Shown piece by piece: positions 12,846 to 40,618 of a stretch of 60,403 bases of DNA. Made by a program: the position numbers and the translations under genes. The notes beneath the pieces were generated by a model. That model did no database searches. It was not told where the DNA came from and worked only from the letters and a program-made list of their open reading frames with translations. Origin of the DNA: a bacterium (GTDB lineage: Bacteria > Patescibacteriota > Dojkabacteria > SC72). Within the stretch, counting starts at the first letter, position 1. Each line of letters opens with the position of its first letter. The stretch is taken from assembly GCA_022840695.1 (NCBI GenBank), contig JALHDC010000005.1, positions 1 through 60,403 on the forward strand, written 5' to 3'.

Positions 12846-12958
12846 ATTAGGACAGATTTTTAAATTAATATCTATTAATACTAATAGATATGGTCTGATT
12901 ATGCAATGTTAATTGATTTTCTTTTACACAGTACAGTATGGTTTGATATAATACTGGA

Positions 12959-13236
12959 GTGATAGATGTAGAATTAAAAAAAGAAACAGTTAAAGCAGGA
13001 CCTACACAAGAACAAGAGAAAATACTCGTACAGATGTTTGGAATATTTCAACTATGTTGGTTGTTTCGTATATAGAAAAGACAGAAGGTGTAAATTTAGA
13101 TGGAGATGAGGAAGACATCTTGATGAGAGAGTGTCAGAGTATAGTGAATAATTATCCAAATAATTTTTGTGCTGAATTTCTTCAAGAAAGATTAAGTAGA
13201 TATAATCCACTTTTGATAGAAGAAGATTATGTCTAG
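12959..13236 (+). pseudogene. Small hypothetical gene split by a single-base frameshift (or sequencing indel)
   Basis: TGATATAAT promoter then GTG 12959 opens MIDVELKKETVKAGPTQEQEKILVQMFGIF..., stopping at 13075; the -1 frame is open from 12994 to 13236 (…STMLVVSYIEKTEG…). Confidence 0.5.
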
Positions 13237-13287
13237 TTATCAAAGGAGTATATAGATTTCCGTAATTCGGTTGAAAAAGTGTAGGAA

Positions 13288-28200: not shown

Positions 28201-31200
28201 TGTGTGTTGTGGAATTTAAATTAGTCCAACCTGTTCTTTGTTCTTCACTGACCCCATATGTGCCTGGCCCTAAATTAATCCAAGAATGACAACCATCGCC
28301 TGGTTCTAAGGTTGTTGAGTCAGTATCGATTATACTGCCATTTTTAATTAATGAAACAGACCAATTATCTACTGGGAATCTATCATTTGATGTACTATAC
28401 AAACCGTCCATATCAGCTTCTTTACATGCTGTTACAGTGATATTTTCAAAATTACCGAAATCGTTTTCCGTGCTGTTTGTTCCTGAAAGTATAGTTATAT
28501 CAGAAGGATTAGAAGTTGTTTGTGTCCATCCACTTTCCAGTTGTTCTCTTACTCTGTATGTACCAGCAGTTAAACCAGTAAATATGTAATTACCATTGGA
28601 GTCCGTGATTGTAGTTGAATCTACAGTACCATCTGCATTTTTGTCTAATTCAATAGTCCAACTTGATAAGCTGGATTCTCCAGAATCTTTCGTACCATTT
28701 CCATTTAAATCTTCAAATTTTTGACCTGATATTGAGCCTAATTGGAAATTCGTAATTCTAGCATTTATAGCAGATTCAGAAGTATCATAATTGATATTAT
28801 AGGAATAAGTTCTACCACCAGAAGGTATAGTTTCTATCCAACCACTTTGCATTACTTCGGAATATGTGTAAGTACCATATTCCAGGTTTCTAAATGCGAC
28901 ATTCCCATCAGCATTTGTAACTTCGGATTTGGAATATCCATTAGGTCCAACTAAATTAATAGTCCAACCTTCTAAACCAGGTTCTCCTGAATCTTTCATA
29001 CCATTTCCATTTAAGTCATTGAACTTAGAAACATTTATATGACCTAATCGAATATTTCCAAAATCTAAAGATTTTGGTTCCCCAGGACCAACATATACAT
29101 ATTGACAGATTGGAGTTGAATTAAGATAGCCTGAAGGTACAGACTCTTTAACAGAATAATTACCTGGGAGTAGATTATTGAAGGAAATGTTTCCACTACT
29201 ATTAGTGGTTCCTTGTGTAATTCTTGTTCCTGTACAGTCAGTACTACTAAATAGTTCCATTTGTAATCCAAAGATATATGCTGGTTCACCAGCTTCCTTG
29301 CTACCATTAGCGTTTTTATCTACAAATTTATGGACATCTATGGAACCTCTTTGAGTATTAGTAAAGACACATGTGATAATCTCTCCTGGTTGGAGGTTTA
29401 TTGCATTAATGGGGCTTCCATCACTACAAATTGTATTTGTTAAGTCCCATCCTTGTGGGATAGTCTCTGATACGGAATAAATCCCTGCTATCAACCAATC
29501 ACTGGGATATGTCTGTCCATCACTTAATGAGAAAATAGGATTAAAATTTGAAGTAAAATCGAATAATTGTGAGCTTTGGCTAGGTAATGTTTGTTTTTCA
29601 GTTATAATTTTACCTCTTTGGGTATTAGTAAATATACACTCAACATTTTCTCCTGCCTCTAAACCAAAACTTGCCACATTTGTACCGATGAAAGGACCTA
29701 CTGTTTTCCCATCTATACTTGATGTACAAATTAGACTATTTAAATCCCATCCAGAAGGAATAGTTTCGGTAATAGAATAGGAACCAGGTAAAAGATTTCT
29801 AAATGACTCAGTATTAAAATATTCTGCATCATCATTATCATCTAGTATAAAGCTTGACAACCCTACACCTGTTGTTAAGAATGAAAATGTCTGAGGACTA
29901 TTGTTAGGTATAGCCACTTTTGTTACTGTAATTGATCCTCTGTACACAAGATTATTAAATGTACAAATGGTTTCTCCTCCAGGTAGAACAGTAGCTGTAG
30001 CTCCTGAAGAACCATAAGCAGTACAGTTTGTTCCTGAAATGGAACCTAAATAATGTGTTCCAAAAGGACCATATTCAATAATAGTATGGGTTTCTCCTGT
30101 ATTGACCTGTCCAAAGTCGACATATCCATCAGAATCAGGGATTATTGGTGATCCTTCATTTAAAGCGAATGACCAATCTGTCACGTTCCCCCAATCTACA
30201 AGTTTTCTAACCTTCAGGCTTCCAGTATTACGTGTATTTGTAAATGTACATTCTAATTCTTCTCCTAAACTGACATCAACATTTATTGAATTTCCTGTTG
30301 CTGTACTTCCATCATTACATGATATTGAAGTTGCGTAGTTTGAATCTGAAGTCTCTGTTATAGTATAAGGACCACTCATTAAGCCGTGTAAAGCGTGGGA
30401 ATCACCATCTCCAAGGCCATCTCCGATACCGGGTATAGAGTAAGGTCCTCCCGCTCCAGGGATGGAGGTTGTAATTGTAAAGTTCCATTTACTTGAATTG
30501 TTAGGAACAACATCTTTAGTAATCCTGATTGATCCTGATTGATCATTATTGGTTATAGTACAAGTGACATTCTGTCCTGGACTTAGAAGTACTGGATTAG
30601 ATACTGTAGCTCCTGTAGCATCATCTACGCAATTCCAAGTACCTTCAATATAACCTGTAACATCCTTTTCACTTAATAAGTAAGAAACATTAGGTAAAAC
30701 AGATGGAGTTGATGTATAAGTAGTTGTTGAACCATTTACAACACCTGCTCCAAAAGTAATTAAATTCGTTCCTACCTTAATCTCAAAATCATTGACTGTT
30801 GCTGTTCCTCCATGATCATTTAGAATATTTTTAATAACTGTAAGTGTTGGTGTTTCATAATTAAGAAAATCGATACCCTCAACTACAGCATTTGCAGCAC
30901 CGAGAGTTCCAACAGTTACTCTATGGCAACCGTTGTTATCAGTTGGAAAACTTTGAGCCCATCCTGTTTGTGACTGTTCACAAACAATATTTAAACCTGA
31001 AGGAACACCTAAGAAAGAGTATTCCCCTTGGGCGTTTGTTGTTGTAGAAAGTTCACCTGTATCTAATTGTCCATTTCCATTTGAATCAATGAATATAGTC
31101 CATCCAGATAGGGGTAAATCTACATCAGAATTATAAATTCCGTTTGCATTAACATCCTTAAATTTACTCCCATATATAGATGGAATGTTTTTTCTGTTTG

Positions 31201-33325
31201 TTACATATACATGTAGGGTTTGATTTGCAGCAAGCGTAACTTGAGCTCCTTCAGTAGTGGTATCACTATCTGGGGTAATAGATACTAATACAGATCCAGT
31301 AGGTAATGAAGTCTCATAAATTGTATGATTTCCAGCAACTACACCATTGAAAGTTACTGTCCCACCATTACCAATAGTTTGTGGAGAACCATTATTTAGT
31401 TTAACACTATATGTTCCTCCATCGGAGATGTCTTCTCCATGAGGACCAACTACATCTTTGTGAACAATAATGGTTCCCGTTCTAGTATTTATGAAGTCAC
31501 AGGATATTATGTCTGAATCATCAATCGATATATTCCCCCATCCATTCGATATGATTGAGCCAACAATAGATCCAGCTTGATCTCTACAAATAGCCGAACC
31601 ATATGAGTATCCAGAGGGGATATTTATCTCTGTAATGGAATATGTCCCAGCTGGAATTTTACCAGTATTTGCAGTTCCATCGGAGCTTGTCGAGAGACTT
31701 AAGGATGATGTCCCAGCTATGGAGTATTGCCAACCTGCTCCTCCAGGAGTTGAAGTATTATCTATGTATTTTTTGACACTGATGGTACCACCACAAGTTC
31801 TACTTGCAAGTTCACCAAGATCCTTTGCTAAATCAGCAAAGTCAGAGGTAATAACATCTGAAGTTAGTATTCCCGTATTAACATTGGGACCGGAGATAGC
31901 AATCATATTTGCAGTATCCAAGTCTGAACCTATCCCAAGAGCTAGTATTCTTGTGCCAGCAGTTTTTATTGTGTCCGCAACAACTACAGCAGCTGCTACT
32001 GCCTGAGATTCTGTAGCATATGTCCCAGATACTCCTGTTCTATTTGGATTCCCATCTGAGGAGAAAATCATTAGGTTAGGTTTATCATTTCTAGGATCAT
32101 ATGTTGACAATGCTTTATTCAGACCATCTTCCCAGTTTGTAAATCCGCCATCGCCTGCAGAATTTATTGCACTTTTAACTAAAGCAATATCAGCAGTAAA
32201 AGGTTGTAATATATTTGCGGTTGTTGCAAACTCTGTTACTGAAAATTGTGTAGGGGTTCCTGCAAGAGCATCTACAAAAGCTACAAAGGCACTTTTCATT
32301 TGAGCTAGTTCAGTTGTGTTTATACTTCCAGATACATCTAAAACAAGAGCAATATCCAAGCCACAGGCCTCTGTAGGAAGAGGGGGATTAGTAACTGGGG
32401 GAACGACAGTAATTGCCTCCTTCATTACATATGGTGTGGGGTCAGAACCACCACTACAATTATCTCCATTATATACATTTAAAGATAAATCATAGCTACC
32501 AACATCAAAAGGAGCATTAATATCAAAACTCTCGGTATAAGTTCCATCACCATTATGGTCCTCTGTATTTACACATTCCCAATCACTATCTCCTATTCTA
32601 TATTGAGAAGAATGCCAATCATCCTCAGAGTTTCTTCCACTAGTTATTGCTTTGATTGTTACAGTGATAAGAGCACTGGGAAAAACAGTTACTTGAGTTT
32701 GGTTATTAACTGCTCCCGAGGCTAATACAGGACTATTCCCAGAAGTTTCAACAATAAATATTGTAAAATGCTCCAAATCCTCTATTCTAACAGTATCCCC
32801 TTCATTAACTACTGTATTAGTAATTTCTCTTACATTTGTAAATATATCCTCTCTCTCTTCTACATAAACCACCTTTGTATTTTCCCTATTAGATGGTAGT
32901 GTTAGATCATACTCAAATGTCCCATTGACCATATCTGTTGTAATATCATATGCCTTATTACTTATTGACCCAGTAGCATCTATTTCTTCTTGTGTTAATG
33001 TAATTTCCTCTATTGAAAGAGTAGAGGATTGTTCTGGTAATTTGGTAAATGTTACAGACACATCACTATTTGAAGGAAATATATATGTTTCTCCCAATAC
33101 GACTAGATTATTAGTAGTATATATATTGCCTACCTGATTCCATATAGGGATATCTTCTTCTATAATAATAGGCGTATCTGGTACAACATCTTCTTGAATA
33201 CCATTTTCAATGGTAGCTTCTTCTACTATAAAATCAATAGCTTTTACAGAAGGTACAAAGGTATAGAGAATTAAAAATAAAGAAACAAAAACCCTGTTAA
33301 GGGAGTTTTTCAATGATTTTCTCAT
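25181..33325 (-). CDS. Giant surface adhesin: signal peptide, VWA, repeated SdrD-B/Cna-B/SpaA-like Ig domains, DUF11-like domain, internal LPSTG+TM, second extracellular module, C-terminal TM
   Basis: DIALVLDVSGS MIDAS; repeats of GSISGxKxEDxNxNGxxD...W.I.L; LPSTG at 26233-26219; terminal TM IGLIVIVVIFLAGGIGYMYVRNRK. Confidence 0.88.
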   Translation of the reverse strand: MRKSLKNSLNRVFVSLFLILYTFVPSVKAIDFIVEEATIENGIQEDVVPDTPIIIEEDIPIWNQVGNIYTTNNLVVLGETYIFPSNSDVSVTFTKLPEQSSTLSIEEITLTQEEIDATGSISNKAYDITTDMVNGTFEYDLTLPSNRENTKVVYVEEREDIFTNVREITNTVVNEGDTVRIEDLEHFTIFIVETSGNSPVLASGAVNNQTQVTVFPSALITVTIKAITSGRNSEDDWHSSQYRIGDSDWECVNTEDHNGDGTYTESFDINAPFDVGSYDLSLNVYNGDNCSGGSDPTPYVMKEAITVVPPVTNPPLPTEACGLDIALVLDVSGSINTTELAQMKSAFVAFVDALAGTPTQFSVTEFATTANILQPFTADIALVKSAINSAGDGGFTNWEDGLNKALSTYDPRNDKPNLMIFSSDGNPNRTGVSGTYATESQAVAAAVVVADTIKTAGTRILALGIGSDLDTANMIAISGPNVNTGILTSDVITSDFADLAKDLGELASRTCGGTISVKKYIDNTSTPGGAGWQYSIAGTSSLSLSTSSDGTANTGKIPAGTYSITEINIPSGYSYGSAICRDQAGSIVGSIISNGWGNISIDDSDIISCDFINTRTGTIIVHKDVVGPHGEDISDGGTYSVKLNNGSPQTIGNGGTVTFNGVVAGNHTIYETSLPTGSVLVSITPDSDTTTEGAQVTLAANQTLHVYVTNRKNIPSIYGSKFKDVNANGIYNSDVDLPLSGWTIFIDSNGNGQLDTGELSTTTNAQGEYSFLGVPSGLNIVCEQSQTGWAQSFPTDNNGCHRVTVGTLGAANAVVEGIDFLNYETPTLTVIKNILNDHGGTATVNDFEIKVGTNLITFGAGVVNGSTTTYTSTPSVLPNVSYLLSEKDVTGYIEGTWNCVDDATGATVSNPVLLSPGQNVTCTITNNDQSGSIRITKDVVPNNSSKWNFTITTSIPGAGGPYSIPGIGDGLGDGDSHALHGLMSGPYTITETSDSNYATSISCNDGSTATGNSINVDVSLGEELECTFTNTRNTGSLKVRKLVDWGNVTDWSFALNEGSPIIPDSDGYVDFGQVNTGETHTIIEYGPFGTHYLGSISGTNCTAYGSSGATATVLPGGETICTFNNLVYRGSITVTKVAIPNNSPQTFSFLTTGVGLSSFILDDNDDAEYFNTESFRNLLPGSYSITETIPSGWDLNSLICTSSIDGKTVGPFIGTNVASFGLEAGENVECIFTNTQRGKIITEKQTLPSQSSQLFDFTSNFNPIFSLSDGQTYPSDWLIAGIYSVSETIPQGWDLTNTICSDGSPINAINLQPGEIITCVFTNTQRGSIDVHKFVDKNANGSKEAGEPAYIFGLQMELFSSTDCTGTRITQGTTNSSGNISFNNLLPGNYSVKESVPSGYLNSTPICQYVYVGPGEPKSLDFGNIRLGHINVSKFNDLNGNGMKDSGEPGLEGWTINLVGPNGYSKSEVTNADGNVAFRNLEYGTYTYSEVMQSGWIETIPSGGRTYSYNINYDTSESAINARITNFQLGSISGQKFEDLNGNGTKDSGESSLSSWTIELDKNADGTVDSTTITDSNGNYIFTGLTAGTYRVREQLESGWTQTTSNPSDITILSGTNSTENDFGNFENITVTACKEADMDGLYSTSNDRFPVDNWSVSLIKNGSIIDTDSTTLEPGDGCHSWINLGPGTYGVSEEQRTGWTNLNSTTHSFGSAQSGQNFLYRFVNTQLGSISGIKWEDMNANGVRDAEDEGLDNWTIKLDKDGDGTIDFTTTTNSNGIYIFEDLLPGTYKIIEDSPYPWNVSYPSAGVNYYDGVVLSAGSNLLEYDFGNYKNGSIEGYKWEDTNRDGIYDSNEQAPNSQWEIKLWKEINGEKVSQPGSVFSQADGYFGFGVSPGIYYLTEVLKSGWTQTYPNTEFLGPIEITSGEISINNNFGNFENGTIYVDKYEDTDGILGSEGREESLIGDPTFTFRLYYIEDTQWTLIGEEDTNSSGKASFENQMSSLGEYKICEIKKDGWEDMRSLFNPANNLSGATDEYPVCEGISLTTSGYSASLEFENAKLSDIHGYKWQDINGNGYRDCSDELLERSLLQENYCREWAEPLLSDWTINLYRWNGEDYGEEPIESTTTDDTDEHFGWYWFEDLLPGQYKVCEVPQDGWLQSFPINENDNCHIITLPDDNPNTYPLTVNFLIEPEPEYNFGNYVIPPELEIEKLNDTGGLGMSTEDIVTYTIIVKAPEDDTDGEYLLKNVVVTDILPEGFEYILGSWTGTTNEPVYNGVPAKWEIGDMEEGDIVILTYKALISTTQEPGLYPDIAWVSGEDILEGSVLGVSSVEPTENFVGTEVLVIAEEELEEGEVLGATTIQNIELPSTGANILITIGAIVSMILGFILLLFKPKKKVNVLLLATTLLLGMSIFLTPKATYASENEKINVQISQPQTPTNKTSFRISYVALDLDSRPLTIECLETTYGKYATHSTYSGTCLVDSSILTGSGTYTFTVKATANDGSGDYKISKPVTVVVDLEMPTPITNYTKTEGICTYILSFTTGSKSTKVQIFRSTVQPFSANASTLIKEISVSPNQSVTYTDTIPVCGQEYFYAVRSVDSVSNTSPIVTDPIIQTVEVQGEATTTTTTTQTTTPTSTTPTAVTVQESEDAEVKGEEETPEDTEKVEKEESEEIGEEKEDKTEEKSNIGLIVIVVIFLAGGIGYMYVRNRKTTY

Positions 33326-38487: not shown

Positions 38488-38575
38488 AGGCAGTTGTTGT
38501 ATACATTCTGGCATATTTTCAGAATTTATTCTATAATTGCAACTGCAAATTAGTAATATATTTAAAAGACTCATT

Positions 38576-39055
38576 ATGGATAATAGTTTTACAAAAAAGA
38601 TAGAAGAAGGTTTCTACAAGAAAAGACCTGATGTTAAGGTTGGAGATACTGTTAAATTACATCTTAAGATAAAGGAAGGGAGTAAGGAAAGAGTTCAGAT
38701 TTTTGAAGGTGTTGTAATATCATTAAAAGGTTCTGGGTTGAATAGGAACATTGTGGTGAGAAAAATATCCTACGGTGTTGGTGTAGAGAAGATTGTACCT
38801 TTACATACTCCGGTATTACAAAAGATAGAGGTTGTTAAGAGGGGAACTGTTGGGAGATCCAAACTCTACTACCTAAGGGATAGGGTTGGTAGAAAAGCTC
38901 TTAAGACTGGTGCCACAGAGGATATATATTTAACAGATGAAGTAGAGGTTCCCGTAACAGGAGAAGAAATTGCTGTTGAAGAGGAAGTAACTGAAGTAGA
39001 AGAGAGTACAGAAGAGAAGGTTGAGGAAGCAGTTGAAGAGAAAGAGGAATCTTAG
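38576..39055 (+). CDS. rplS: 50S ribosomal protein L19 with acidic C-terminal tail
   Basis: PDVKVGDTVKLH, RVQIFEGVVI, VRKISYGVGVE, KLYYLRDR; start placed at MDNS (38576). Confidence 0.96.
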   Translation: MDNSFTKKIEEGFYKKRPDVKVGDTVKLHLKIKEGSKERVQIFEGVVISLKGSGLNRNIVVRKISYGVGVEKIVPLHTPVLQKIEVVKRGTVGRSKLYYLRDRVGRKALKTGATEDIYLTDEVEVPVTGEEIAVEEEVTEVEESTEEKVEEAVEEKEES

Positions 39056-39076
39056 TATATTGAATATATTACTCTT

Positions 39077-39150
39077 GCAGGAGTAGTTCAATTGGTTAGA
39101 ATATCTGTTTTCCAAACAGAGGGTTGCGGGTTCGAGTCCCGTCTCCTGCT
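39077..39150 (+). tRNA. tRNA-Gly(TCC)
   Basis: GCAGGAG/CTCCTGC acceptor, TCTGT TTTCCAA ACAGA, U73. Confidence 0.95.
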
Positions 39151-39187
39151 CAGATATGAAATTCTCATTAAAGTATTAGATAATTAT

Positions 39188-39217
39188 TGGACAGAGCAAT
39201 TATAAAGATGTTATACT
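39188..39217 (+). promoter_or_regulatory. Promoter for the hairpin-NYN unit
   Basis: TGGACA (39188-39193), 18 bp, TG-T-TATACT (39212-39217). Confidence 0.55.
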
Positions 39218-39223
39218 CTGTGT

Positions 39224-39269
39224 AATAACCGCCTGCACCAGATTCTTCTGACAGTGCAGGCATTTTTTT
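39224..39269 (+). ncRNA. Candidate ~46-nt structured small RNA / terminated leader upstream of NYN
   Basis: GCCUGCAC-CAGA-UUCU-UCUG-(ACA bulge)-GUGCAGGC-A-U7; ends 6 nt before the NYN ATG. Confidence 0.55.
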
Positions 39270-39275
39270 ATACCT

Positions 39276-39815
39276 ATGTTTCCAAAAGAAAAAGTAAAAA
39301 TATTTTTAGATGGTAGTAATTTCTATTACTACTGCAAAGATATTGGGATACCAGCATATCCTAATTTTGATTTTGAAAAGCTAATTAATATACTAGCAAA
39401 TAGTCGTTTAATAAAAGAAAAATCATACTATGTAGGTGTTGTTAGAGGGAAACCCTCTGATAGTAAAAGCATGAAAATGATGGCAAAACAAATGAGTCTC
39501 TTTTCATATCTTAAGAAAAACGAATGGAAAATTAACAAAGGGTATCTATTAAAAACAAAGGGAAAACATCACGAAAAAGGAGTTGATGTTAAATTAGCAT
39601 TGGATTTAGCACTTGGGGCTGTAGATGATCTATACGATGTCGCCATTTTAATTTCTTCTGATACCGATATCCTACCAGCGGTAGAAGAAGCAAAACTCAG
39701 AGGAAAGAAAGTTGAATATATCGGATTTTCTGACAACCCAAGCAAAGCTATGCTGAATAAGTGCGATCGAAGTATGCTACTTGGAAAAAAGATTTTGAAA
39801 AGTTGTGTGATCTAG
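39276..39815 (+). CDS. NYN (LabA/DUF88, PIN-like) domain ribonuclease
   Basis: IFLDGSNF, EKGVDVKLALDL, LISSDTDI, GKKVEYIGF; catalytic Asp residues intact. Confidence 0.92.
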   Translation: MFPKEKVKIFLDGSNFYYYCKDIGIPAYPNFDFEKLINILANSRLIKEKSYYVGVVRGKPSDSKSMKMMAKQMSLFSYLKKNEWKINKGYLLKTKGKHHEKGVDVKLALDLALGAVDDLYDVAILISSDTDILPAVEEAKLRGKKVEYIGFSDNPSKAMLNKCDRSMLLGKKILKSCVI

Positions 39816-39827
39816 TCCATCTACAAA

Positions 39828-39836
39828 TTATCCACA
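39828..39836 (+). promoter_or_regulatory. Single consensus DnaA box
   Basis: TTATCCACA exact match, 8 bp upstream of TATAAT (39845-39850). Confidence 0.3.
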
Positions 39837-39857
39837 ATTTGTAATATAATCAAAGGT

Positions 39858-40412
39858 ATGAAAAATGTTGATGTTCCAATGTGGGACAAGGGTGATGATA
39901 CAGATGATTTCTCAAAAGGAGGAGCTTCCTCCTCATTTTCTTTTGAACCACCAAAGGTAAAAGCTCCAGCTGTTCAGGAAATATTCCAATTAGTATTAGG
40001 TAGAGAACCTTCTTCAAGAGAAATGTCATATTACAAATACAGCACATTAAAAAAAGAAGAAGTTGTAAACAAACTATTAGATGGAGAAGAGCATAAAAAT
40101 ATTTTAGAAAAATCTAAAAAATTCCCAGAGTTAAAAGAGGAAAACAAGAAATATCAATCTACAATTTTAAAACTTAAAAGTAATATAGAGGATAGTAGGA
40201 ATGAGTACTTAGAATTAAAAAGGTTACTTGTAGAAAAGAACAATATAATAGAATCGTTAAGACAAAATCGAGATCTTCCATTTCTAACAAATAAAAGTAC
40301 CATAGAAGAAAACAACATACATTACAGCATATCTAAGGAAAGAAATATTTCAGAAAAGAAGGATATTGGCATTCTTGATAGGCTAAGATATTTACTTTTT
40401 GGTGATAAATAA
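39858..40412 (+). CDS. Hypothetical coiled-coil protein
   Basis: QEIFQLVLGREPSSREMSYY (DUF4214-like helix pair) followed by a coiled coil. Confidence 0.7.
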   Translation: MKNVDVPMWDKGDDTDDFSKGGASSSFSFEPPKVKAPAVQEIFQLVLGREPSSREMSYYKYSTLKKEEVVNKLLDGEEHKNILEKSKKFPELKEENKKYQSTILKLKSNIEDSRNEYLELKRLLVEKNNIIESLRQNRDLPFLTNKSTIEENNIHYSISKERNISEKKDIGILDRLRYLLFGDK

Positions 40413-40414
40413 TA

Positions 40415-40618
40415 ATGAATACAAAAATATTTGCAGAAAGATTAAGAAGGGCAAGAGAGGATATGGGATATTCCCAAAGAATTCTTGGTATGAGAGTAGG
40501 ATTATCAGATAAATCTATTAGCATGTACGAAAAAGGTAATGTTTATCCACCCGTTGGCAATTTACTAAAGATTGCTAAGGAATTAAAGAAAAGCATAAAC
40601 TACTTTCTTGAAGATTAA
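40415..40618 (+). CDS. XRE-family helix-turn-helix regulator
   Basis: RLRRAREDMGYSQRILGMRVGLSDKSISMYEKG..YP. Confidence 0.92.
   Translation: MNTKIFAERLRRAREDMGYSQRILGMRVGLSDKSISMYEKGNVYPPVGNLLKIAKELKKSINYFLED

Follow-up and report, generated by a model that had tools for sequence, protein, structure and literature searches.

A predicted small hairpin RNA gene beside a LabA-type NYN ribonuclease gene in Dojkabacteria and other Patescibacteria: a candidate RNA partner for an uncharacterised nuclease family

A 60,403-nucleotide (nt) stretch of DNA from a member of the Dojkabacteria (Patescibacteriota, lineage SC72; GenBank assembly GCA_022840695.1, contig JALHDC010000005.1; hereafter the window) carries a promoter, a bulged hairpin and a run of uridines immediately upstream of a gene for a predicted LabA-type NYN ribonuclease, and the same arrangement recurs beside homologues of this gene in many lineages of the Patescibacteria. 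The reading favoured here, with confidence that falls a little short of even, is that these elements constitute a two-part module in which a small RNA gene is joined to a LabA-type NYN ribonuclease gene and the RNA serves as the dedicated partner or regulator of the nuclease. An earlier interpretation made from the letters of the window (the sequence-only reading) knew of no described RNA-antitoxin/NYN pair, and the present coupling of RNA and nuclease is recorded in neither Rfam 15 nor the searchable literature. Full-text literature searches (NYN, Candidate Phyla Radiation (CPR), small RNA, type III toxin-antitoxin (TA), LabA) returned no RNA linked to NYN/LabA genes and none like it in CPR. 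Searched with Rfam 15 at both gathering and permissive thresholds, the window yields tRNA only, no family matches the NYN-linked RNA in 13 relatives (whole loci and short excerpts), and short-region scans reach only 7-18 bits, far below the cut-offs. The features of the module in the window are as follows.

39188-39193, + strand: -35 hexamer TGGACA, with T39187 before it (sequence match)
39209-39217, + strand: extended -10 element TGtTATACT (TG 39209-39210, TATACT 39212-39217), separated from the -35 by an 18-nt spacer
39224-39230, + strand: predicted start A39224, 7 nt past the -10, and predicted single-stranded 5' tail AAUAACC
39231-39261, + strand: bulged hairpin (RNAfold, covariation in relatives, covariance model R1)
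39231-39238 with 39254-39261, + strand: outer stem of 8 bp, GCCUGCAC/GUGCAGGC
39239-39242 with 39247-39250, + strand: inner stem of 4 bp, CAGA/UCUG
39243-39246, + strand: loop UUCU
39251-39253, + strand: 3' bulge ACA
39262-39269, + strand: A39262 and U7 tract (T7 at 39263-39269), putative terminator
39270-39275, + strand: 6-nt spacer ATACCT, with no Shine-Dalgarno (SD) sequence and no promoter
39276-39815, + strand: LabA-type NYN domain protein (PF01936; 179 amino acids (aa), ATG at 39276), predicted metal-dependent ribonuclease

The hairpin drawn in the sequence-only reading (8 + 4 bp, UUCU loop, ACA bulge and A-U7) matches the sequence exactly, and RNAfold returns precisely this structure (-19.1 kcal/mol, z = -5.2), with none of 200 shuffled sequences folding as well. 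In a bulge-tolerant scan, 39231-39261 is the strongest hairpin-plus-T-run of the whole 60-kb window; the bulge alone caused a simple terminator scan to overlook it. A G+C-rich stem-loop directly before a U-tract has the form of an intrinsic terminator, and the hairpin with A-U7 would thereby constitute the 3' end of an RNA of ~43-47 nt. The promoter proposed in the same reading (TGGACA, 18 nt, TATACT and the extended TG, giving a start near 39224) is likewise present base for base, with 10 of 12 hexamer matches in addition to the TG extension, and a promoter is conserved at the same distance in relatives. Sigma-70-like hexamer pairs are not enriched in this AT-rich region (32 found versus 37.9 expected in shuffles), and the strict extended -10 TGnTA[TC]A[AC]T is rare (12 occurrences in 120 kb, counting both strands, about half of them before genes); what supports the promoter is accordingly the rarity of its extended -10 and, first and foremost, the fact that relatives conserve it. 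Another strict match, at 12944 on the + strand, is intergenic (region 12846-13286) and has no annotated gene of that strand close by; it may serve as promoter for a small gene or RNA missing from the annotation.

The ATACCT spacer lacks an SD sequence, as had been pointed out, but this is not peculiar to the NYN gene: absence of an SD is the rule in this genome, with an SD-like motif before only 4 of the 51 open reading frames (ORFs) in the window. A TATAAT-like box, often with a TG extension, is found 4-9 nt before the start of 18 of the 51 ORFs (e.g., 17306, 39858, 48730 and 51482 on the + strand; 22257 and 44245 on the - strand), a pattern indicating that leaderless mRNAs are probably widespread among the genes of the window. 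Since a -10 element placed in the spacer would sit only 1-2 nt from the ATG, the NYN gene would depend on read-through of the hairpin in this lineage.

The conservation of the RNA was surveyed in 80 genome loci (designated L001 onwards) retrieved with an alignment of NYN homologues (A1), with bins labelled as Dojkabacteria, Moran-, Kuenen-, Magasanik-, Falkow-, Nealson-, Wildermuth-, Gribaldo-, Roizman-, Curtiss- and Daviesbacteria and Saccharibacteria; these taxon labels are partly unreliable. The closest named NYN homologue belongs to Candidatus Dojkabacteria, and the family carries Patescibacteria labels only, apart from bin labels that appear erroneous. The RNA adjoins NYN in all 80 loci and lies upstream on the same strand in 79, the remaining case being L072, where the RNA sits a short way downstream of NYN in the opposite orientation. 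The covariance model R1, derived from the NYN-adjoining RNAs (its E-values are rough owing to a shortened calibration), detects the RNA in 77 of the 80 loci, with those in L041, L042 and L079 recognised by inspection. In the window, R1 gives a single match (39224-39266, 23.6 bits) and nothing else above noise.

Within the 110 nt before each start codon, nearly all loci share a common order of promoter, 5' tail, G+C-rich stem of 7-8 bp, helix defect, variable apical stem with a cap that is mostly GNRA or UUCG, 3' arm, U-run, a gap of 8-50 nt and the ATG; in three loci (L018, L029 and L052) the RNA lies 120-190 nt upstream of NYN. In most Patescibacteria loci the 5' tail starts ~6-7 nt past the promoter, as a purine and then CUAAAAC(C)A or a variant thereof (RCUAAAAC(C)A). 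A perfect TTGACA is present in 50 of 74 distinct sequences, at a spacing of 16-19 nt to a -10 whose end lies 5-8 nt ahead of the RNA, and 56 of the 74 have at least 10 of 12 promoter matches. In 66 of 74 loci, four or more T residues in a row come after the hairpin.

Pairing was assessed on a MAFFT alignment of 74 sequences (A2) at nine pairs comprising the outer stem and two inner pairs. Uncorrected for phylogeny, 92.3% of cells pair (versus 71.9% in shuffles) and 122 cells show changes on both sides (versus 28 in shuffles); neither value is reached in any of 500 shuffles. Eight of the nine pairs covary across the phylum, and sliding the 3' partners by 1-3 columns reduces pairing to 33-49%. 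RNAalifold independently recovers a 7-bp outer stem with compensatory changes at six of the seven pairs. As judged from these alignments, the RNA structure is under selection.

The closest relatives form a Dojkabacteria-type set of ten loci (the window, L001, L002, L081 and L083-L088), in which all 110 cells pair (100%) and compensatory changes occur at four pairs. The 5' arms of the outer stem differ (e.g., GCCUGCAC, ACCUACGC, GCCUGCGC and GCCUACAC), each accompanied by a matching 3' arm, and the loops and U-runs are variable. The 3-nt bulge, for which the sequence-only reading had suggested a possible role in protein recognition or cleavage and whose lack of conservation would have counted against that reading, is retained as A[C/U][A/C] in all ten loci (ACA in three, AUA in six, AUC in one). 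The 5' tail reads AAUA(A/U)(A/C)C in nine of the ten and UAAACCC in L084, and most of the ten possess a TGnTATAAT-like extended -10 located 5-7 nt before the RNA, with the exceptions of L087 (TATATT) and L088 (no TG). Regardless of RNA class, the helix is interrupted at the same height in all classes inspected, as a C-C or C-A mismatch, sometimes with U-C, in classes A and C, and as a 1x2 or 1x3 internal loop in class B. Throughout the phylum, the class of RNA goes with the taxon label of the locus.

Additional variation concerns the 5' end and promoter of the RNA in particular subgroups. In L035, L039, L047, L053 (both copies), L054, L070, L078 and L080, the promoter lies ~55 nt farther upstream, and the RNA has an extra 5' domain (..GAAGUAU.GGAG..GAUGAAACUCCUUUAUUUU), itself a further small hairpin, ~50 nt before the CUAA motif. 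A DnaA-box 8-mer (TTATCCAC/GTGGATAA) occurs in the RNA promoter region of 11 of 75 loci (L005, L008, L022, L030, L037, L046, L047, L053, L054, L059 and L073), compared with fewer than one expected, and adjoins the -35 on its upstream side where inspected. The only perfect DnaA box of the window (TTATCCACA, 39828-39836) lies past the NYN stop codon and ahead of the -10 that serves the following gene (39858). These occurrences hint at a link to DnaA control in certain lineages.

The coupling of the RNA to NYN is also apparent from rearranged loci and from a search that started from the RNA. The flanking genes differ in every close relative, even where the NYN proteins are 60-70% identical. Locus L053 contains two full RNA-plus-NYN modules 3 kb apart, and L033 contains a ~240-bp tandem duplication of the promoter, the RNA and the first NYN codons, resulting in two RNAs (2680-2723 and 2918-2962) and one intact NYN gene. 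A metagenome search with the 5' half of the RNA (CTAAAAYCACCCRCYCTG) returned 120 loci, in which true copies were defined by the presence of the 3' arm and a U-run; 60 were chance matches lacking the 3' arm and 60 were true hairpins. Forty-six of the 60 true hairpins (~77%) are followed by an NYN gene at 51-90 nt, with 44 of these genes belonging to the NYN family of the window and the other two (L103 and L139) encoding a distant NYN paralogue (PF01936, E ~1e-12) that the family hidden Markov model does not detect.

The protein itself is a clear member of its family (PF01936, E = 5e-19, 69.7 bits versus a cut-off of 24.2). Residues D12, N15, D104, D129 and D131 are invariant among the 31 homologues of alignment A1. 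NYN active sites are defined by four acidic metal-binding residues (PMC5499597), with which D12, D104, D129 and D131 agree; the catalytic aspartates are thus intact, as had been claimed from the sequence. The AlphaFold2 model (mean predicted local distance difference test score 92.5) has a PIN-like alpha/beta fold with no helical insert after strand 2, and the only clear structural neighbour found with Foldseek is 2QIP (VPA0982; E = 8e-10, template-modelling scores 0.71/0.78), which is also the only match in a sequence search of the PDB and comes without functional information. A profile search of 1.84 billion representatives recovered 104 clusters at E <= 1e-30 and 1889 at E <= 1e-10. The LabA-like group to which such proteins belong, NYN.COG1432, is listed as functionally uncharacterised, with no member assayed (PMC5499597). 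A CRISPR-associated NYN protein is a non-specific, Mn-dependent ribonuclease acting on single-stranded RNA (bioRxiv 10.1101/2024.04.08.588522); because NYN enzymes can be of this kind, a restraining partner is plausible.

The following sequence of events is proposed for the window. Transcription would start at about A39224 from the sigma-70-type promoter with its extended -10, producing a transcript that consists of the 7-nt tail and the bulged 12-bp hairpin. Because the U7 tract follows, most transcripts would end at the hairpin as an RNA of ~45 nt, and the minority reading through would be the only NYN mRNA in this genome, with the hairpin at its 5' end; NYN would be translated from the AUG at 39276 without an SD, as for most genes here. 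The terminator would in this way set a large excess of RNA over nuclease. These steps, from the start of transcription to the RNA excess, are deduced from the sequence and from strong comparative evidence, while binding or cleavage of the RNA by NYN is a hypothesis. According to that hypothesis, NYN would recognise the conserved helix defect (in the window, the ACA bulge located 8 bp above the base of the helix), the free RNA would titrate or restrain the enzyme or possibly direct it, and contact between NYN and the read-through mRNA would provide feedback on NYN synthesis. The most explicit version of this proposal is a phylum-wide, vertically inherited ribonucleoprotein or RNA-inhibitor system in which a near-consensus promoter, accompanied in some lineages by a DnaA box, yields an excess of a ~45-nt hairpin RNA, and this RNA, via its conserved helix defect, binds a LabA-type NYN protein and controls or directs it; so fully specified, the proposal is tentative and, on balance, doubtful.

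Several observations weigh against reading the RNA as a dedicated partner of NYN. A terminator hairpin is itself selected for pairing, such that covariation alone proves only a conserved terminator, and the 5' tail and the helix defect differ between RNA classes, so that a single mode of recognition may not apply to all of them. The loci were sampled via NYN similarity and via one RNA class, which biases the percentages. The remaining RNA copies from the metagenome search, which represent six distinct cases, are not accompanied by NYN and lie before genes for alanyl-tRNA synthetase (AlaRS), prolyl-tRNA synthetase (ProRS), 23S-IVP or an unknown ORF, or before nothing obvious. One of these orphan copies (L160, before ProRS) retains a few NYN-like codons and looks like a deletion remnant; another (L095, before AlaRS) has no recognisable promoter. 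Moreover, in a second Patescibacteria NYN subfamily, NYN-B, most genes lack the R1 RNA (including all of the NYN-B loci L209-L212). The RNA does precede NYN-B in L103 (12600-12646) and L139 (1877-1924), with a TTATCCAC-TTGACA promoter as in Magasanikbacteria-type loci. Taken over both searches, the association between RNA and NYN appears strong in both directions but is not absolute from the RNA side.

The main rival to an RNA partner, unlikely as an overall account but carrying real weight, is that the hairpin is a purely cis-acting leader, i.e., an attenuator (constitutive or dependent on protein) and 5' stabiliser of the NYN mRNA through which NYN autoregulates by binding or cleaving this leader, with the short RNA being a functionless by-product. 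Ribonucleases commonly regulate their own synthesis via hairpins in the 5' untranslated region (UTR), as in rnc and rne, and in the window and most other loci the hairpin would, by anatomy, lie in the 5' UTR of the NYN mRNA. The window and most Parcubacteria-type loci have no second promoter, the ATG in the latter following the U-run by 8-30 nt, and in some loci (e.g., L050) an SD is present after the terminator. Additionally, U-runs are shorter where read-through is needed and longer in loci with a second promoter (median 6 versus 5, p = 3e-5, uncorrected for relatedness), a difference compatible with read-through being tuned where NYN lacks its own promoter. The description of NYN as gated by the hairpin in the sequence-only reading is anatomically right for this lineage, where there is no room for a second promoter, but it does not extend to at least 13 other loci in which a TATAAT box (6/6, or 5/6 with TG) lies 6-8 nt before the NYN ATG and past the U-run. 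These loci (Roizman-, Curtiss-, Davies- and Wildermuthbacteria, together with bins bearing unreliable or generic labels) nevertheless keep the RNA promoter, the hairpin and the terminator U-run. As NYN there has its own leaderless promoter, with the hairpin outside its predicted mRNA, the RNA would be a gene in its own right and would have to act in trans. The inverted, downstream position of the RNA in L072, the persistence of orphan RNA copies without NYN, and the length of the segment before the hairpin (only ~7-9 nt, with no room for an alternative antiterminator structure) are further points against a leader. A cis-acting leader agrees with the window, but not with lineages in which NYN has a promoter to itself.

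A selfish or defensive system resembling type III TA, in which NYN is a toxic ribonuclease, the hairpin RNA is its antitoxin and the pair is kept by addiction or phage defence, is improbable. The layout of promoter, RNA, terminator and ribonuclease gene matches, NYN never occurs without the RNA (80 of 80 loci) while orphan RNAs exist, which is the asymmetry expected of a toxin and its antitoxin, the module is duplicated in L053, and the flanking genes are variable. In contrast to type III systems, however, the RNA contains no tandem repeats (Tandem Repeats Finder, 38900-39900), the protein has an NYN rather than a ToxN/AbiQ-like fold, the RNA classes follow taxon labels across the phylum, the 60-kb window holds one copy, and no relatives of the module were found in IMG/VR viral contigs. 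The phylum-wide spread and the class-by-taxon pattern argue less for a selfish element than for a housekeeping nuclease that has its RNA regulator built in.

It is less probable still that the hairpin represents an independent housekeeping small RNA that is unrelated to NYN and merely its neighbour through old conserved synteny. An own promoter and terminator, and the few copies before other genes (AlaRS in L095, ProRS in L160), agree with such a role. However, the surrounding synteny is otherwise unconserved even at 60-70% NYN identity, the pair has been duplicated together, the RNA also precedes the distant NYN paralogue, and NYN has no other promoter in most lineages.

The last alternative invokes the two genes upstream of the module.

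38537-39055, + strand: rplS, upstream of tRNA-Gly
39077-39151, + strand: tRNA-Gly(UCC), following rplS, with the hairpin and U7 80 nt further on

An ordinary intrinsic terminator of the rplS-tRNA-Gly unit combined with a fortuitous promoter-like match, the interpretation that the sequence-only reading had set against its own, draws on this 80-nt distance, on the lack of enrichment of hexamer matches over shuffles and on the co-orientation of the nearest upstream gene in 52 of 61 judged loci, but it is contradicted by the comparative data and can be regarded as very improbable, given that the RNA and a near-consensus promoter at fixed distance persist in 80 loci with differing upstream genes, that the promoter always intervenes, that just three of the ten Dojkabacteria-type loci (the window, L001 and L002) have a tRNA directly upstream, that the upstream gene is divergent in 9 of the 61, and that the 5' tail and bulge are conserved in sequence and not in pairing alone. 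Transcripts from rplS/tRNA-Gly would likewise stop at the hairpin, which cannot account for its conservation.

Other identities for the RNA were considered and rejected. Signal recognition particle/4.5S RNA, 6S RNA, tmRNA and RNase P RNA give no covariance model match, and their size and motifs do not fit. A kink-turn at the bulge is not supported on inspection, with no tandem G-A after the 3 nt. A mini-ORF within the RNA was dismissed, an AUG being present near the 5' end in one class with neither frame nor stop conserved. Pairing of the 5' tail with the U-tract (CUAAAAC/GUUUUAG) is possible in one class only and is not general, and inspection by eye showed no antisense match between the tail and either the start region of NYN or the 3' element of NYN-B described below.

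Further observations concern NYN-B and the genes surrounding the module. NYN-B is very conserved (~70% identity across classes, with at least 8000 relatives in databases). Directly past the stop codon of its gene lies a nearly invariant element of ~47 nt (AGAGAGGCAUUCCCnnGGGACRAAACCCUUUGGUAGUCCUCUCAUCGUGAUA) consisting of a stem with an internal hairpin, for which there is no Rfam match and which is located as follows.

L209, 2995-3045: NYN-B 3' element
L210, 2995-3045: NYN-B 3' element
L211, 3039-3089: NYN-B 3' element
L212, 2987-3035: NYN-B 3' element
L103, 13201-13250: NYN-B 3' element
L139, 2435-2485: NYN-B 3' element

This element could be a second NYN-linked RNA, and it hints that the pairing of NYN proteins with small RNAs may be a general theme in CPR. 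Directly past NYN, the window (39858-40618) contains an ORF of 184 aa with no Pfam match, preceded by a leaderless-type promoter (TAATATAAT) 7 nt before its ATG, and a 67-aa XRE-type helix-turn-helix protein (PF01381) that begins 2 nt past the 184-aa ORF, the two forming a small two-gene unit. A very large ORF of 2714 aa occupies 25181-33325 on the - strand. In a Moranbacteria genome, an abiF RNA motif (RF03085, 45 bits; L020, 6052-6087, - strand) is found 3 kb from the NYN module; this copy has its own TTGACT/TAAAAT promoter and a U-run, i.e., a promoter-hairpin-terminator layout, and scores weakly with R1 (25 bits).

If the RNA is indeed a dedicated partner of NYN, the large bacterial LabA/NYN group, so far uncharacterised, would gain in it both a first partner RNA and a first functional handle. 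Few bacterial nuclease-like families lacking a known substrate are as large as the LabA-type NYN proteins (PMC5499597). The co-inherited RNA offers this family a concrete candidate ligand or substrate, and RNA and protein are two small components that are simple to make. Most CPR/Patescibacteria have not been cultivated, and very little is known of their RNA biology. A phylum-wide RNA family with promoter, terminator and covariation provides an annotation landmark for CPR, the R1 covariance model tells the element apart from generic terminators during genome annotation, and the RNA would be one of few candidate trans-acting small RNAs proposed in this group. The occurrence of a type III TA layout in an apparent housekeeping setting additionally bears on the origin of such systems.

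Comparison with known systems reveals partial resemblances in several directions. Type III TA systems (ToxIN, CptIN, TenpIN, AbiQ/antiQ) similarly have one promoter, a structured RNA and a Rho-independent terminator before an endoribonuclease gene, with the RNA in excess. In the window, however, the RNA is a single hairpin that would itself act as the terminator, with no repeat array, and the protein is NYN/PIN-like rather than ToxN/AbiQ, CptN or TenpN; furthermore, the module is phylum-wide, divided into classes by taxon label and absent from IMG/VR contigs, whereas TA systems are patchy and mobile (plasmids, phages, islands). The rnc leader (cleaved by RNase III) and hp2 of the rne 5' UTR (bound by RNase E) likewise place an irregular conserved stem-loop between a promoter and a ribonuclease gene, but the window hairpin precedes a U-tract and so would also terminate transcription, the enzyme family differs, and in other lineages the RNA is predicted to be transcribed separately from NYN. 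The abiF RNA motif (RF03085) and similar motifs share the combination of promoter, short hairpin RNA and U-run beside a defence or nuclease gene, but differ in sequence, structure and protein family, and the Rfam abiF model does not match the NYN-linked RNA. The LabA-like NYN.COG1432 proteins (VPA0982, 2QIP; LabA of Synechococcus) have the same Pfam family, fold and four acidic active-site residues, although no partner RNA has been described for the group (PMC5499597). The NYN protein of the type III CRISPR system found in Bacteroides fragilis is also a small stand-alone nuclease and acts on short structured guide-RNA precursors (bioRxiv 10.1101/2024.04.08.588522); in contrast, there is no CRISPR array or cas gene here, and the RNA is a single fixed hairpin rather than a set of repeat-spacer units. 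The NYN-linked hairpin lacks defining features of type III TA systems and, at least in the lineages with a separate NYN promoter, of ribonuclease autoregulatory leaders; it probably represents a new RNA family, and the module could be more than a variant layout if the RNA proves to be a true cofactor of the nuclease.

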